A program made the position numbers. From Vampirovibrionaceae bacterium NZW_1234 (lineage in GTDB: Bacteria > Cyanobacteriota > Vampirovibrionia > Vampirovibrionales > JAGQHJ01), in contig JBGUGD010000030.1 in NCBI GenBank assembly GCA_041697335.1, positions 176,291-240,290 on the forward strand: a stretch of DNA of 64,000 nucleotides, in the 5' to 3' direction. This document shows, one piece after another, positions 21,001 to 30,000 of this stretch (positions are counted from its first letter, which is position 1; each line of letters opens with the position of its first letter).

Positions 21001-24000
21001 GAGCCGAATAAAGATATCGGGATGGCCGAAATTCGGGCCCTGAAAAAAGAAGGTGTGAAGGGCCGTGAAGGGATGGAAGGCATCTCGCCTCGGAAATTGA
21101 AAGATAACGTTATTCCGGCAATTATGACGCATCCGGATGTTCAGAAAACCAAATCCATTGATGGTTATGGTGTTTTGACCATTATTCGGGATAAGTTGGA
21201 TTCCGGTGAAATTGAGTTGGAAGGCGAAGTGAAAGACAAAGCCTACCAAAACCTGGAAATTGCTTTAAAAGATTTGGATGAGCACGTGAAAGAAGATGTC
21301 ACGGAAGCCATTGCCGGGGATCGGGATAACCTCAATGCCATCTTGGATGAATACCTGCGTAACGTGGAAGCCTTTGTGGATAAGAAAGATGTGAGCGATT
21401 GGCGTGGGATTTCCTCTGGCCCCAGTGAACAGCTGATGCAATCCATCGAAAAGAAGATGGGGGTTTCCGACAATCGGACACACCGCCAAAAGCTGAATGC
21501 CATCTTAGGTTCCTATCGTCGTGATGGTAAGCCTATTGATCTGGATCTGTTCCCGGATATTAAAAAGGCCATTGTCCAACATGAGTTGGAACAATTGGAG
21601 CGCAACATTCCATGGAAGGCCTTGTGTACCACGGAGCCGTTGTCCACCAAGAAACAAGAAGATTATCGCCAGGGTGTCATTGGCAACCTGAAGAAAAAGG
21701 GGTACGACGAAGAGTCTGCACGTCACGCGCTGGCTCGGGTTGGTTCTCTGTTCAACACCAATAAGTAACGCCTTTTTCAGCCAATCAGGAGAACGTTCAT
21801 GATACAGGTGTTGTATCGGAATCCGATTCATAATTTGCCTATGGCGAAAACCGTGAAGGTGCAGCGCCCTACAAAGGCTCTTCCTCAAGCGGTTGTTCGC
21901 TCCGGCTCGGCCTTGGCCAAGGTGTCCTCTGTGCCGCTTACTGCGACGCAATGGCAGGCCTATGTCTTGCCAAAATCCGATCGGCAAACCCGCTTTGGGA
22001 TGAACTCGGATATTTTCTCTCCCGGTGATATCCTACTGGGCGATCATCCTCCGGATGATGAGCTGGATGAGCTGGATGCGTCTCGTAAGTACCAGTGGGA
22101 TATTATGACCCGGTCTCGGCCCGGATTCCCTCAAGGATGGCTACAACCGGAAGATACCGTATTTGTGGTCACCGATCAGATGCGGATGATGCAGGCCAAT
22201 GCCCGAAATGGGTTTCCGCTTCGCTATAATCACTATAGCTGGGGTGAGGCCTTTAACCGGCTCTATCAAATGCAGGGCCATGGGTTGATGCGGATTTACG
22301 AAAGCGTCATCAATACCAAGCCTTCGGTTGCCTATTTGTTGGATTTCAATCCGGTCTATGCACAGAAGCTGGTTATCGGACACGTGTTTGCACACACCGA
22401 CTTCTTTAAGAATAATATCCGGTTCCAGGACTCGAACCGAGACATTATGCGAGTTATGGCCGACAATAAGCGCGCCATTGCCAAATATGCCTCTGACCCG
22501 ATGATTTTACGTAAAAGCGTCGGGAAAACCACCCCGGTGGAGCGGTTTATTGATGATTATAAGACGATGGAATGGCTCATTGACATGAGTAAATCCGCAC
22601 CGCCGCCACTAACCCCCTATGGGCAGGCAACGGATCCATCTACGGTGGCTCAGGTGGATTTGGACATGGGGTTAAGCCGTCAAAAACTTGGCTTGGGTGG
22701 CTTGATGCGAGACTTTATTGTCTCTGAAGACGAGCGTTCGAAAGCCGTAGATGATGCGCTGACCCGTCGGGAAAATCGAATCAAAAACATTCCGCCAGAA
22801 CCCACGCGAGATGTCTTGGGCTTTTTAATTCAGCACTCTAAGTCGCTTGAACCTTGGCAGCGGGATATTTTAACCCGTCTTCGCGAAGAATCGTACTACT
22901 TTGCTCCTCAGATTCAAACCAAGGTTATGAATGAGGGGTGGGCGACCTGGTGGCATACCCGAATGGGTGCTGAAGGGGTCTATAAACCGGATGAGATGGT
23001 TCCGGTTGCCAAGATGATGGCCGGTGGTGAAGCTCATGACCCTCAGGGGCTTAACCCTTATTTGGTGGGTCGCACCATTTTCCATAATATCTATGAAAAA
23101 GCGGGGCGGGGTATTCCCATTGATGTGCCCGAGGAAGAACTGGTTAAACGCTATAGTATTGATGAGCTGATGGCGCTGAAAAAGAAACCCATTGACGATG
23201 AGTTGGGCATCAAGGCCATTCAGCATGTGCGCAAATATGAAGATGATATGTCGTTCTTGCGCAAATATTTAACCGAGGACGTTGCCCGTGAATTGGGTCT
23301 GTACAATTACGAAGAGGTAACCGATTTCCGGGGTAATACGGAAGAGGTTGTGACTTCCAAAGATTTCAATGCGGTCAAATCTCGGATTCTTCAAAATTAT
23401 GACAATGGCGGTATGCCTATCATTGAAGTCGTCAATGGGGACTATCGCGGTCGCAGTGAATTGTTGCTGCGTCATGTCCATCTGTTCCAGGATCTGAATC
23501 GCAACGACGCCAAAGAGACGTTGAAATCGGTTTATCGGATGTGGGGTATGCCGGTTCACCTGGATACCTTCTACACCGCACCCGTGGATCCCAACCTGAT
23601 TAACAGTTTGGTTCAATCGATCCGTAATGCCCGACAATATGGCCAAGGCAAAGCCTATTGGCGTGGCAGTGAAAAGACGTTACAGGAAATGGAACAAGAG
23701 TTGCATAAACTGCAATCCAACAAGACGAAAGTCCCCATCCGATTCTCGACCGAAGATGGGAAGGATGTGTCCATTCGCGTCCTGAATGACAAAGGGGATA
23801 CCACCAAAAACTTCGATCCCAAAGATTTCGTGATTAAGGCAGACAGCGATTGGTATTGGTAGGGGTGACGTATGATTATTAATCAACTTGGACAATTCAT
23901 ACAGAAACCGACAAACACGGCTCGCCCCAGTGTTTCTCGGCGACCTGTGATGCCTGCGCTGAACCAGGATCTGTTTCAAATCTCCAGAGCGCAATCGGGC

Positions 24001-27000: not shown

Positions 27001-30000
27001 ATGATGCATCCACAGTTCGTGAACAATTGGATGTGGTTTTTGTAGGCAGCGCCAACCCGGAAAGCATCTTAAAAATGATGAAAGAAGGGCAATGGGATGC
27101 TTTGTCGAAGCGGACCAAATTGATTTATGTGCCGTATTTGCGCCAATATCGTGAAGAAGCCCAGATTTACGAACCCTTGCTGGCCAATCAGCGTCAACGG
27201 GGTCGAAAGATCGATCCGTTTGTCAATGAAGCCTTCCCGTTGTTTTTGACGACCACGCGTTTGCTGCCCGTCAATGCAGATAATGCGGCTTATAAAAAGG
27301 TCAATAGCGATGAATTGACAGAAGGCTTGAAAAAGCTCGATCCGTTACGCAAGGCGTTGCTGTATCAAGGGGAAGATTTAAATTCCTTTGAAAGTTCGCC
27401 GAATAAGGTGCCGCCTTTTGAACGACGGATTCAAGAAGCCCTGCATGATCATGTGGCCCTGGTCAAACATGAGCATGACCCGGATTCTCGCTCGGACATT
27501 GTCTCGAACTTTGAAGGCAGTCATGGCATCGATCCTCGTGAAGGTGAGGATTTGATGAAGCGGATATTAAACTATGATCCGGAGTCGCCGGTGACGGTCT
27601 TGACGATGTTTCAAGCTCTTGCCGATGTGGTCAAAACGGATATGAAATATCAGCAGGATTTGGTGCAAGCCATTAAAATGGATCCCAATTTCTTTGGCAA
27701 GTTTCAGAAGCCCGGGGCCAAGAAAGATGAAAGCCCGGCCTTTGTTCCGACGCCCATTGATTTGCTGAAGATGGTCGAGGGCCATATGCGACGGAAAATG
27801 CAGGTGGAAATCAAAGAGGCCTTGAAGGTCTATCATGAGCCCAAGATCTATGCCGACCAGATTCGCAAGTATATGGCCCATGTTGAGGCCCGTAACAATA
27901 CGACTGAAATAGACGATCCGGAGCTGCGTTCACCAACATCCACGGATAAAACACCCGATCCGAATTTCATGAAGCGAATTGAATTGATTATTGCGCCTAG
28001 TGCCGTGAAATCGGATAAGGATTTAGAAACCTTCCGGCTGGAAATGATGGGCCGTCAAAAGCGATGGGATCGGAGCCAATCCGTACAGGACAACATCTTG
28101 CGGATTTATGAGCCCGAGGTAAAAACCTTGATGACCCATGATGAAACCAAGTTCCAGGAACACCTGGATCGGTTGCTGGCCGATCTGCCCAAGGTCTTGC
28201 GTAATCCCAATATTTACGACAACCAGGCCGATAAAAAAGATCATGTGGAACAAATTTTAGGAGGTATTGCAAAACTCACCGAGCGCGGTATACCCAAGGA
28301 AGCGTTGCCTCAAATGGTGGAGTGGGCCTTTGATCCGGCTCGAAACTTTATCTCCGATGGTACATTTAAAATTAGGAGGCCCTCGCAGTCATGACCGTTG
28401 CTCTGACCCCAGTGAATCAGTTTGTGTCCTCACGTTTATTGGCCAGTAAAGGGGGTGTTTCTCCCAAGCGGCCTGTATCCCGCCAGCCGCGTTTTGCCGG
28501 TCAATTCAGTCAGCCAGTAACGGCACCGGTATCCAATCAGCAATTGGTGTCGGCGCTCAAGGGCCAGGTTAAGTTTGGCTCCTTGGGACAACTGATCAGT
28601 ATTGCCCCGGGGTATAAGTTGGGTGAAGCTCGGGCAGCTCATAACCAGCCCCTGAATCGGATGCCCAGCATTATTTTGGAAAGCGCCACCGGCGATAAAA
28701 TCGCGATCGATCCGGTTTCGGCCAATTTTGAGCGCAATATTATCGAGTTTACCGAAGATTTTAATCAAGACTCGGCTCGCGCCTTTAATGCCCAGGTCGA
28801 TTTTCTGAAAAACAAAATCCTGGATAAACGTGCTAAGGGCGAAATTAAAGACCCCAGTGAAGAAACGGTTCATATTTACATCAATAGCCCGGGTGGGATG
28901 ATTATCTCGCTTTATGCCATGATCGATGCTGTTGATACGTTGAAAAAAGCCAATATCCCCGTGGCTACCTACTGCCGTGGCATGGCTGCCAGTTGCGGTT
29001 CGGTATTGTTTGCCCTGGGTACTCCCGGCCAGCGTTATATGACCCCCCATGGGCGTGTTTTGGTGCACCAACCGTTGGGTGGAAGTTATGGTCAGGCAAC
29101 GGATATCGGGCTTCAGAACGAAGAAATTCAAGAGATGAAAATTAAGCTGACCGATATTTTGTCCCTCTCTGCGCTGGAGGGCAAAATCATTCGATTGCAG
29201 AAAGAAGTGGATCGCCTGTCGGAATCCGAAAATCAGTGGTCCCCGAATGTACAGGCCCGGCAAAAGCAAATTGCGCAATTTGAGGCGGAGAAAGTTCGGA
29301 TTCGTAAAACCCAGGAAGCTCGCACTCAACAGAAAATTTACATTACCCAGGCCGAAATGCTGAAAGCAGAAGACCGGAGTCAAGAAGCCGAAGAGGCCTT
29401 GGCTAAAGGCCAAAAGCTCGTAACCGATACCATTGCAGCCGTCACCAGCGAAGCCCGTGAGCAGGAGCGTCAGCGTTTAACCGAGGTGATTGCCAATTCC
29501 GATGGTGCGACGAAGACTACGGCAGAACGAGAATTGAGACGCTTGGATGATCGCAAGGTCCCCTATAGCTCGACTCGCGAACGTATGGCCCAAGTCATGG
29601 AGCGCGATCGCTGGTTGACTGCTGAAGAAGCCGTTGAGTACGGCTTAGCGGACGGTATTGTCACCCGCTAAGTGGTTTTTCACACGCACCCTCGATTGAC
29701 TTGATTCAGATCCCCGTATTGTCGCTGCTGCTGGGCTCGTGTCTTGTGATTCTTTCAGGTACAATGGCCCAACATGGGCCGTATTGATACGAGAGAGGAG
29801 CGTTTTATGAAGGTGGTTGCGAAATCCGGTAATGTATTGACCAGTGATGCTGACGCCTTGGTGGTCAACTTGTTTGAAGGCGTAACCCAGCCGGGGGGTG
29901 GCACGGGAGCGGTGGATCAGGCCTTGGATGGGGCGATTCGCCAAGAGATTGAACATGGCAAGGCCTTTAAAGGCAAACTGGGCGAAACCCTGATTTTGCC

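Follow-up and report, generated by a model that had tools for sequence, protein, structure and literature searches.

The window analysed here, a stretch of 64,000 nucleotides, comes from an uncultured relative of the alga-eating Vampirovibrio that was placed in the Vampirovibrionales; contigs from four DNA runs matched its sequence except for one letter. The genome (G000) is 95% complete, and our own gene calls gave 3,106 genes. A run of five forward-strand genes (19495..29671) encodes products that all bear an N-terminal leader ending in a short Phe-centred motif. The first gene encodes a PrkA-like AAA kinase (19495..21768, with the start at 19495 or 19546; VRFG at 19672-19683), followed by genes for a SpoVR-like protein (21799..23862; TRFG at 21988-21999, ahead of a domain that Pfam matches from residue 121), a DUF444 (YeaH/YhbH) protein (23872..25662; VRFS at 24013-24024), a second PrkA-like protein (25665..28394; PRFS at 25824-25835) and an extra ClpP-like protein (28391..29671; PRFA at 28487-28498, with a second copy, VKFG, downstream). 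The preliminary description had named the last three as carriers, which our coordinates bear out; the two genes upstream of them carry the motif as well. The DUF444 leader, about 52 residues long, is present in two close homologues and absent from three distant ones, and a leaderless ClpP is encoded on contig C1. Elsewhere in the window, the motif occurs in an orphan without a Pfam match (3334..4797, reverse strand; IRFA at 4630-4641), an unannotated protein (37561..39828, forward strand; PRFG at 37693-37704) and two reverse-strand TPR proteins (48177..49139, VRFG at 49020-49031; 49251..51062, LRFA at 50937-50948). The orphan is preceded by a promoter-like site of the carrier regulon (4790..4817, reverse strand, score 20), the sole strong one before a carrier in the window.

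Throughout the genome, 240 of 2,978 proteins have [PVITLM]-R-F-[GSA] somewhere in residues 2-76 and shuffling yields 41, which corresponds to some 200-220 true carriers; about one protein in 14 starts with the tag. The motif is real and operates at the protein level. The pattern originally proposed, [RK]F[GSA][GSAH], is indeed concentrated at the N-terminus: 193 of 3,013 longest ORFs (6.4%) contain it between residues 4 and 75, as opposed to 0.6-1.2% in six later intervals; among model-start proteins, 152 of 2,962 have it in residues 4-75. RFG likewise held its place as the leading 3-mer (170 of 2,767 proteins in residues 8-75, 29 in within-segment shuffles), and the C-terminus yielded no comparable word, only helix-cap words that are found in protein interiors too. 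The Lys alternative had to be dropped, KFG showing no enrichment in this genome (19 vs 23), and RF[QR], which the earlier pattern had missed, proved to be enriched (42 vs 22). Several copies per protein are not enriched (26 of 223 carriers, 22.8 expected). A DNA-level motif or wrongly assigned gene starts were considered as an explanation and ruled out: matches number 222 in frame 0 compared with 73 and 47 in the +1 and +2 frames and 40 in reverse, several synonymous codons are in use at every motif position, and an SD-ATG downstream of the motif that could bypass the leader was found in only 5 of 223 carriers.

The leader consists of Met, then 3-50 non-hydrophobic residues rich in Ser, Thr, Pro and Arg and poor in acidic residues, and finally Phi/Pro-x-Phe-small. 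Its reported composition was reproduced (D+E 5.1%, S+T 18.3% and P 8.6%, with 11.4, 11.9 and 5.4% in interiors). Many leaders are shorter than 10 residues, and in 64 of the 134 carriers with an SD-ATG the Phe lies at or before residue 19. Only 3 of 257 carriers have a Sec- or Tat-like hydrophobic h-region ahead of the motif, and none of the 257 has at least three membrane segments, compared with 190 of 2,849 other proteins. In some carriers, RR with a hydrophobic stretch and AxA, or a lipobox, follows the motif. The high share of carriers without a known family was also recovered: in carrier-rich loci, 48 of 78 carriers lacked a Pfam match at E<=1e-5, compared with 11 of 40 non-carriers taken from these loci, a control from which five visibly leader-like genes had been removed. 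As described before, the motif precedes the domain: of the 55 carriers with a non-carrier paralogue, 47 have it ahead of the region that aligns. Its position coincides with the edge of the folded domain. Among the carriers are additional copies of proteases, of sigma-like proteins and of TCA and beta-oxidation enzymes; their products include Lon, FtsH, Clp, M16, PRPP synthetase, RtcB and sigma r4 proteins.

In one clade of M16 peptidases the motif is found in 16 of 18 members, in 14 of these 66-71 residues ahead of HxxEH, and at the leader's place 41 of 46 sister sequences carry a Sec-type stretch. Arg precedes the Phe in only 2 of these 16 leaders. Similarly, the DUF444 leader was recognised by eye in 12 of 12 loci of the order, with Arg before Phe in 5. 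Relatives thus retain Phi-x-F-small and not Arg, which weakens the earlier suggestion that cleavage after Arg would expose an N-terminal Phe. The leader-bearing M16 peptidase itself was rejected as a general leader peptidase, because no more than 5 of 151 genomes have it.

A common promoter-like site, GCAA-N9-TTGA-N6-TT, precedes 52 of 193 carriers and 64 of 2,143 other genes (26-30% vs 2-4% on cross-validation); in a wider carrier set it was found before only 62 of 223. When the matrix trained on G000 was applied to a gut relative, G151, it matched 10 of 52 leader-like and 3 of 294 other genes (p 5e-7). The site is absent from the window's five-gene operon and from the genes of the export machine described below. 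A second promoter class was not found before carriers, and of 9 matches to a canonical sigma-28 site none lay before a carrier.

Beside a complete flagellar set, the genome encodes a second complete flagellum-type export set (set 2) with its own FlhA, FlhB, FliPQR, FliI, FliF and rod. One cluster lies on contig C32 (flgF-flgG-flgB-flgC-SLT-fliE-fliF-X-fliH-flhA2-fliI), while contig C8 holds fliPQR, fliO and a FliN-like gene, C29 flhB2 and a sigma factor gene, and C30 fliJ, a weak FliK match (E 0.006) and a gene for a 280-aa FlgE/F/G-type protein, the candidates for a ruler and a hook. Set 2 includes homologues of the eight injectisome core proteins (SctJNQRSTUV), namely FliF, FliI, the FliN-like protein, FliP, FliQ, FliR, FlhB and FlhA. 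In a tree, the second copies of FlhA (12 sequences) group together and separately from the flagellar ones (6 sequences, SH 100). For set 2 we found no dedicated stator, FliG torque domain or L ring; G000 has one FliG_C and one FlgH. Both secretins of G000 lie in T4P-like and Tad-like loci, as judged from their neighbours, and neither is linked to set 2, which might nonetheless share one of them. Nor is a needle, tip or translocon protein tied to set 2, though no search was aimed at these. Protein X was modelled as a putative new helical domain with a weak FliG N/M match (Z 5.4-5.9); its single-sequence structure model was poor, and neither Foldseek nor sequence comparison found a match in the PDB. 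OrfA had no Atlas match. The set-2 rod subunits bear Phi-x-F-x-x-x-Phi; an RFS in the set-2 SLT protein is not conserved. A search for CesT-type chaperones gave a match in 0 of 5 genomes, but the control gave none either. A complex prediction with FlhB2 (residues 232-352) and the DUF444 leader (24-58) scored 0.02. The divergent sigma factor adjoining flhB2 is present in 114 of 151 genomes and in none of 35 f5 and f10 genomes, and co-occurs with the machine; G000 also encodes a paralogue of it on C16 and an ECF-like protein on C34.

Set 2 is kept in all scored Vampirovibrionales and Gastranaerophilales, including those without flagellin. The FlhA family was found in 115 of 151 genomes of the class and in 0 of 33 f5 and 0 of 2 f10 genomes; all 79 f7 genomes keep set 2. 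Flagellin was not found in f7, f8 or f9 (0/35, 0/8 and 0/11), nor was FlgH (0/54), and MotA_N and FliG_C were not found in three flagellin-less genomes, G151, G045 and G082. As for the motif, simple counting of 3-mers and of regex matches in ten relatives agrees with the earlier negative result (RFG in 6 of 138 in G008, 0-3 elsewhere); a variant becomes visible only after conditioning on leader composition. Observed against shuffled counts in leader-like N-termini were 183/41 in G000, 12/2.6 in G151, 9/2.0 in Gastranaerophilales loci and 4/0.9 in Vampirovibrionales loci, with a pattern fixed after G151 and the Gastranaerophilales loci had been viewed. With Arg relaxed, the variant thus occurs in Gastranaerophilales, and the term "lineage-specific" was too narrow. 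The machine-less sample, two genomes with 394 genes, gave 2/1.9 (G104) and 1/0.6 (G053); the motif is absent from DUF444 and SpoVR of G104, and in G053 it is the non-leader-like genes that show an excess (9/3.3). Four genomes of different families with a diverged set 2 showed no clear motif (G099 0/0.8, G069 0/0.5, G082 2/1.9, G045 4/1.6), nor did G005 with a core-type set 2 (2/1.2). In held-out gut loci (47 families) the fixed pattern was found in 0 of 8 (0.3 expected) and the promoter in 0 of 8. By eye, the query family in these loci retains [PQ][AS]F[KT]G.

The motif, the second machine and the promoter-like site co-occur in the genomes sampled. On balance, we favour the reading that the tag directs export through this second, non-motor type III machine and serves delivery into prey, the link being correlative and drawn from co-occurrence in few independent lineages. 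The proposal of an export or prey-delivery signal had been made before; its signal part gains support from the replacement of the Sec signal in M16, the lack of polytopic carriers, the common promoter and the candidate machine, while export itself is predicted from sequence. The same signal and machine might instead send proteins into the periplasm of the cell itself, out into the medium or, through a channel of the feeding-tube type, into a compartment of a sister or resting cell. SpoVR-YeaH-PrkA and sigma-like proteins do recall differentiation, the leader takes the Sec signal's place in M16, and no outer-membrane ring was found for set 2. Such a destination is nevertheless unlikely, since the cargo requires ATP, NAD, tRNA or RNA polymerase, which the periplasm lacks, and since the second signals after the motif imply that cargo first arrives in a cytoplasm; furthermore, V. 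chlorellavorus is described as preying by contact, using a pad and spikes (PMC4451040).

It is quite unlikely that the leader is a cytoplasmic tag (a propeptide, a processing site or a Clp/Lon recognition motif) of one developmental regulon, with the second export set unrelated to it. The residue before Phe differs among relatives, polytopic membrane proteins are missing from the carriers, the M16 leader replaces a Sec signal, and leader-bearing M16 is confined to the few genomes noted above; these points weigh against the common promoter-like site, the many proteases among carriers and the motif's location at a domain edge, all of which such a tag would accommodate. Export by another route, through flagellar set 1 or the Tad or type IV pilus machinery, appears improbable. 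G000 does encode a complete flagellum as well as Tad and T4P loci, and in Campylobacter non-flagellar proteins are known to leave through the flagellum; yet in G151 leader-type genes and the promoter occur without flagellin, stator or L ring, and flagellins and hook-junction genes bear neither motif nor promoter-like site. That the leader mainly mimics an organellar presequence, which the host would read (Arg at P2, RF/G,S,A cut by an MPP-type peptidase), is very improbable even though RF[SAG] agrees with the rule for cleavage in Trichomonas, R(FNESG)/(ILFSAGQ) (PMC2597178), leaders are S/T/R-rich and acid-poor and many cargo proteins have counterparts in the matrix or stroma, because Arg is not conserved, many leaders are too short to reach 10 residues, and neither amphipathicity (moment 0.396 vs 0.390 shuffled, n=124) nor hydrogenosome-type starts (15 of 223 carriers, 161 of 3,106 genes) are in excess. 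Such mimicry could be a second job of some leaders. An ATP/ADP translocase was not found beyond weak matches in f5.

Under the prey-delivery reading, set 2 would be a flagellum-derived, non-motor type III secretion machine of the Vampirovibrionia that reads the leader. Its sigma factor would turn on the cargo genes, and the Phe motif may dock at the set-2 gate, FlhB2 or FlhA2, as rod subunits do with theirs. Cargo would then travel in an unfolded state along an axial, rod-like channel and enter an attached prey cell with a bacterial-type cytoplasm, presumably a bacterium or plastid, where the extra Lon, Clp, FtsH, M16, sigma-like and TCA/beta-oxidation proteins might seize and digest it. More tentatively, we propose that in non-photosynthetic Cyanobacteriota a duplicate flagellum may have become a protein injector independently of the injectisome. 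This injector would obey a strict linear tag centred on Phe, come with a sigma regulon of its own, and allow Vampirovibrionales to place some 200 proteins (proteases, sigma-like factors, enzymes of the TCA cycle and of beta-oxidation, entire operons) in the prey cytoplasm. The "non-motile" gut Gastranaerophilales may then be contact-dependent parasites or predators with the same machine, which, if true, could account for their resistance to culture. The four-residue tag and the promoter would provide a ready cargo list for the whole class.

The gate recognition motif (GRM) offers one of the closest parallels to the tag. Described for flagellar rod and hook subunits (Bryant et al. 2022, PMC8983047), it too is a short Phe-centred motif in the unstructured N-terminus of unchaperoned substrates, and it is present on the set-2 rod subunits. 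The GRM has the form FxxxPhi, lies at least 19-30 residues from the N-terminal signal and docks into a pocket in the C-terminal part of FlhB. The tag differs in having no hydrophobic residue at F+4 (Phi in 50 of 223 carriers, background 26%), in lying often much nearer the start, and in marking about 200 non-flagellar proteins. Injectisome effector signals are N-terminal, S/T/P-rich and acid-poor, and to our knowledge type III signals normally have no consensus; the putative set-2 cargo, unlike those effectors, would share a strict linear motif. As in injectisomes, among which a secretin-less Myxococcales system is counted (NF-T3SS; Abby and Rocha 2012, PMC3459982), the export core of set 2 derives from the flagellum and lacks a motor. 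Unlike them, set 2 keeps rod genes and flgB, flgC and fliE, all in the C32 cluster, is nearer to FlhA than to SctV (678 vs 586 bits, below both cut-offs) and has no linked secretin, differences that argue for an independent derivation and suggest that protein injection arose from the flagellum a second time, among the sister groups of cyanobacteria. Partial flagellar sets without filament, cap, junction, L and P rings were reported from gut Melainabacteria, with two flhA genes in ACD20 (Di Rienzi 2013, PMC3787301; Soo 2014, PMC4040986; Utami 2018, PMC5877343). These are the same genes as set 2, which those accounts take as flagellar loss or genome reduction and which we read as a paralogous system coexisting with a full flagellum; the "decaying flagella" of common gut Gastranaerophilales would become a conserved secretion machine. 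Vampirovibrio is a pest of algal ponds that kills Chlorella. Its predation has been modelled on a conjugative T4SS (Soo 2015, PMC4451040), which shares with our proposal the contact-dependent delivery of hydrolytic proteins into prey. T6SS and eCIS sheaths were not found in G000, nor was the VirB4 ATPase (PF03135), which occurs in 5 of 151 genomes of the class and in only 3 of the 36 searched in the order, G000 included, whereas set 2 was found in all 36 and can be tested against the T4SS model as another explanation of how Chlorella is killed.

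The genome under study (3.70 Mb on 41 contigs; 3,106 genes called with a self-trained model) was analyzed for N-terminal words, using shuffle controls that preserve the composition of each N-terminus. The preliminary description had reported [RK]F[GSA][GSAH] to be enriched at N-termini, and this was reproduced: 193 of 3,013 ORFs (6.4%) carry it within residues 4-75, compared with 0.6-1.2% in later windows. RFG is the top N-terminal 3-mer (170 versus 29 shuffled, n = 2,767), followed by PRF, VRF, RFS and LRF. The form [PVITLM]RF[GSA] was found in 240 of 2,978 N-termini, against 41 in shuffles (maximum 48) and 24 of 1,900 in protein interiors. 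RF[QR] contributed a further 42 (22 by chance), and the remaining RFx words at N-termini showed no excess (136 versus 124). These counts give about 200-220 true carriers; the class is real and larger than first stated. The signal is confined to the coding frame, with synonymous codons used, and only 5 of 223 carriers have an SD-ATG alternative start downstream of the motif. Carriers cluster as neighbours (42 pairs, 18 by chance). The three genes initially singled out carry the motif, as do all five of the prkA-spoVR-yeaH-prkA2-clpP run (19495..29671). A gene beside csrA (53790-54290), which we take from its sequence to be FliW-like, has SRFG near its start and is probably a chance carrier.

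The leader preceding the motif is poor in acidic residues, rich in S/T/P and not hydrophobic, an h-region lying ahead of the motif in 3 of 257 carriers. In 47 of 55 carriers having a non-carrier paralogue, the motif lies N-terminal of the aligned part; for 143 of 223 a paralogue is absent. Among DUF444 homologues of 11 order relatives the extension, judged by eye, ends in Phi-x-F-[GKN] (Phi, hydrophobic) in 12 of 12 loci, and the adjoining PrkA has this motif in 10 of 10. Of the database DUF444 homologues, two close ones have the leader and three distant ones begin at the domain. In a genome devoid of the second export machine described below (G104), the DUF444 extension is acidic and without the motif, and SpoVR lacks an extension. 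The M16 peptidase and its 18 closest homologues form one clade (SH 100), in which [PVILM]xF[GSA] occurs in 16, a variant in one and nothing comparable in one; at the leader position, 41 of the other 46 homologues have a Sec-type hydrophobic stretch. These comparisons suggest that the leader behaves as an address, most clearly in the M16 peptidase, and that its constant residue is Phe. Arg is not constant, occupying x in only 5 of the 12 DUF444 loci (by eye).

Upstream k-mers revealed a site, (t/g)(a/g)GCAa-N9-TTGAg-N5-TT(t/a)(a/t)t, which in most cases lies 60-110 bases upstream of the gene start. It precedes 52 of 193 carriers versus 64 of 2,143 other genes (reverse strand, 4), and cross-validation gave 26-30% versus 2-4%. 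Among non-carriers, degenerate leaders were seen in 34 of 64 with the site versus 373 of 1,977. Genome-wide, 102 of 135 strong sites precede a same-strand gene. The matrix, trained on this genome only, found leader-like versus other genes at 10/52 versus 3/294 in G151, a gut genome of family f7, 17/191 versus 12/1,053 in pooled core-type genomes, 1/98 versus 1/577 in diverged-type genomes and 0/51 versus 2/351 in machine-less genomes. Only 62 of 223 carriers are covered, and the site was found neither before the window's prkA-to-clpP operon nor before the second machine's genes. We infer a putative promoter read by a sigma factor. The sigma beside flhB2 is FliA-related and shares the range of the second machine (114 of 151 genomes). 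A 44% paralogue (C16:18950-19630) occurs in f1-f4 and most f7 genomes, and a 179-aa ECF-like sigma gene (L050:13012-13551, contig C34) with its own promoter-like site (score 17) is a third candidate reader.

Of two FlhA-family genes, one belongs to a full flagellum and the other to a parallel set (set 2) on contigs C32, C8, C29 and C30. The second FlhA copies form a separate clade scoring 658-710 bits against the FlhA model and 555-614 against SctV, under both cut-offs. Every scored genome of f1-f4 (f1-f3 being the order of this genome) and f7 gave a FliF2 match at E<1e-90; matches were weak in f6, f8, f9 and f11 and absent in f5 (0/33) and f10 (0/2). The named records closest to FliF2 carry the labels Vampirovibrionales or uncultured cyanobacterium (68-69%), followed by Vampirovibrio chlorellavorus and Gastranaerophilales. 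Set 2 is retained in f7-f9 without flagellin or FlgH, and MotA_N and FliG_C were not found in three tested f7-f9 genomes. The product at the fliG position (model pLDDT 84) comprises a helical domain with no clear structural counterpart, followed by a C-terminal part for which FliG N/M gave the top, though weak, matches (Z 5.4-5.9, rmsd 4.7-14). Searches of this genome found no VirB4 and no T6SS or eCIS sheath; VirB4 occurs in 5 of 151 genomes. All 35 f7 genomes have two or more FHIPEP matches, most with a single FliF. Two small paralogous orphans without Pfam or Atlas match directly follow fliI2 (L031:788-1858), and in G069 four paralogous orphans come straight after flhA2 (L167:9926-15381). 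FliF2 also matches in other classes of the phylum (f12, f14, f18, f21, f24, f26 and f34; none in the remaining families), often as two copies of about 530 and 610-660 aa. The second machine may be older than Vampirovibrionia.

Relatives were sampled at 150-400 kb per genome. With a pattern fixed after two of the sets had been viewed, the motif exceeded chance among leader-like N-termini (observed/shuffled) here (183/41), in G151 (12/2.6) and in Gastranaerophilales (9/2.0) and Vampirovibrionales loci (4/0.9), was borderline in G008 (3/0.9), G041 (3/0.9) and G045 (4/1.6), and lay at chance in G005, G099, G069, G082, G104 and G053; a held-out test of the fixed pattern came out empty. The Gastranaerophilales form is M[QKNR][IV]-polar-[PTIV][SNAT]F[GKT], and G151 clusters with records of that group. 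Since the lineages are few and related, the tracking of set 2 by the leader is suggestive only. Top N-terminal words in G151 (L071-L090) are prepilin-type (TLG, AEV, FTL), with many pilin-like genes, and 16 of 33 f5 genomes show weak matches to TLC, the nucleotide translocase family. DNA runs sharing 30-73% of this genome's words, some of them duplicates, carry hot-spring or microbial-mat labels and may represent the source sample.

Carriers lack a Pfam match at 1e-5 in 48 of 78 cases (20 loci), versus 11 of 40 non-carriers; L14, chorismate synthase, HxlR, Usp, YdjM and LptD_N are chance carriers among those matched. Named cargo includes citrate synthase, aldehyde dehydrogenase, PRPP synthetase, RtcB, nucleotidyl transferase, DAG kinase and NUDIX enzymes, as well as trypsin-like, FtsH-like, Clp-type AAA, HEAT and TPR proteins. 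Twenty large carrier or promoter genes include M16, Lon, FtsH, NAD synthase, GlpD-like, FHA and two sigma-r4 proteins, and some cargo is paralogous to housekeeping genes, named from sequence (MDH, IDH, S1, beta-oxidation enzymes). At least three membrane segments occur in 0 of 257 carriers versus 190 of 2,849 others; 36 of 257 have a hydrophobic stretch C-terminal of the motif, a few resembling Tat, Sec or lipoprotein signals. Some large proteins that follow a leader or the promoter contain repeats of sigma-70 region 4 or an entire sigma-70 (L255, L256, C2:10943-13102); they are candidate hijackers of a foreign RNA polymerase.

Three independent sequence clues, the signal swap, the regulon and the machine range, tie the leader class to an overlooked, putative secretion system. 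The named cargo requires a cytoplasm to function. Set 2 is the most likely reader of the leader; we lean slightly towards this reading with prey as the destination, and delivery by set 2 to some other destination seems improbable. Literature searches, which covered papers outside subscription journals, listed none whose title or abstract opening reports the leader, the promoter or a second type III system for the class. PMC3787301, PMC4040986 and PMC5877343 treat partial flagellar gene sets as flagellar loss, and PMC4451040 attributes predation to a T4SS; PMC2597178 and PMC3459982 were also drawn on. Set-2 rod subunits carry Phi-x-F-x-x-x-Phi, and the tag may therefore be a shortened gate motif. 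However, measured against the flagellar gate recognition motif, the leader breaks both the F+4 rule and the spacing rule (the latter from PMC8983047) and is classed apart from it.
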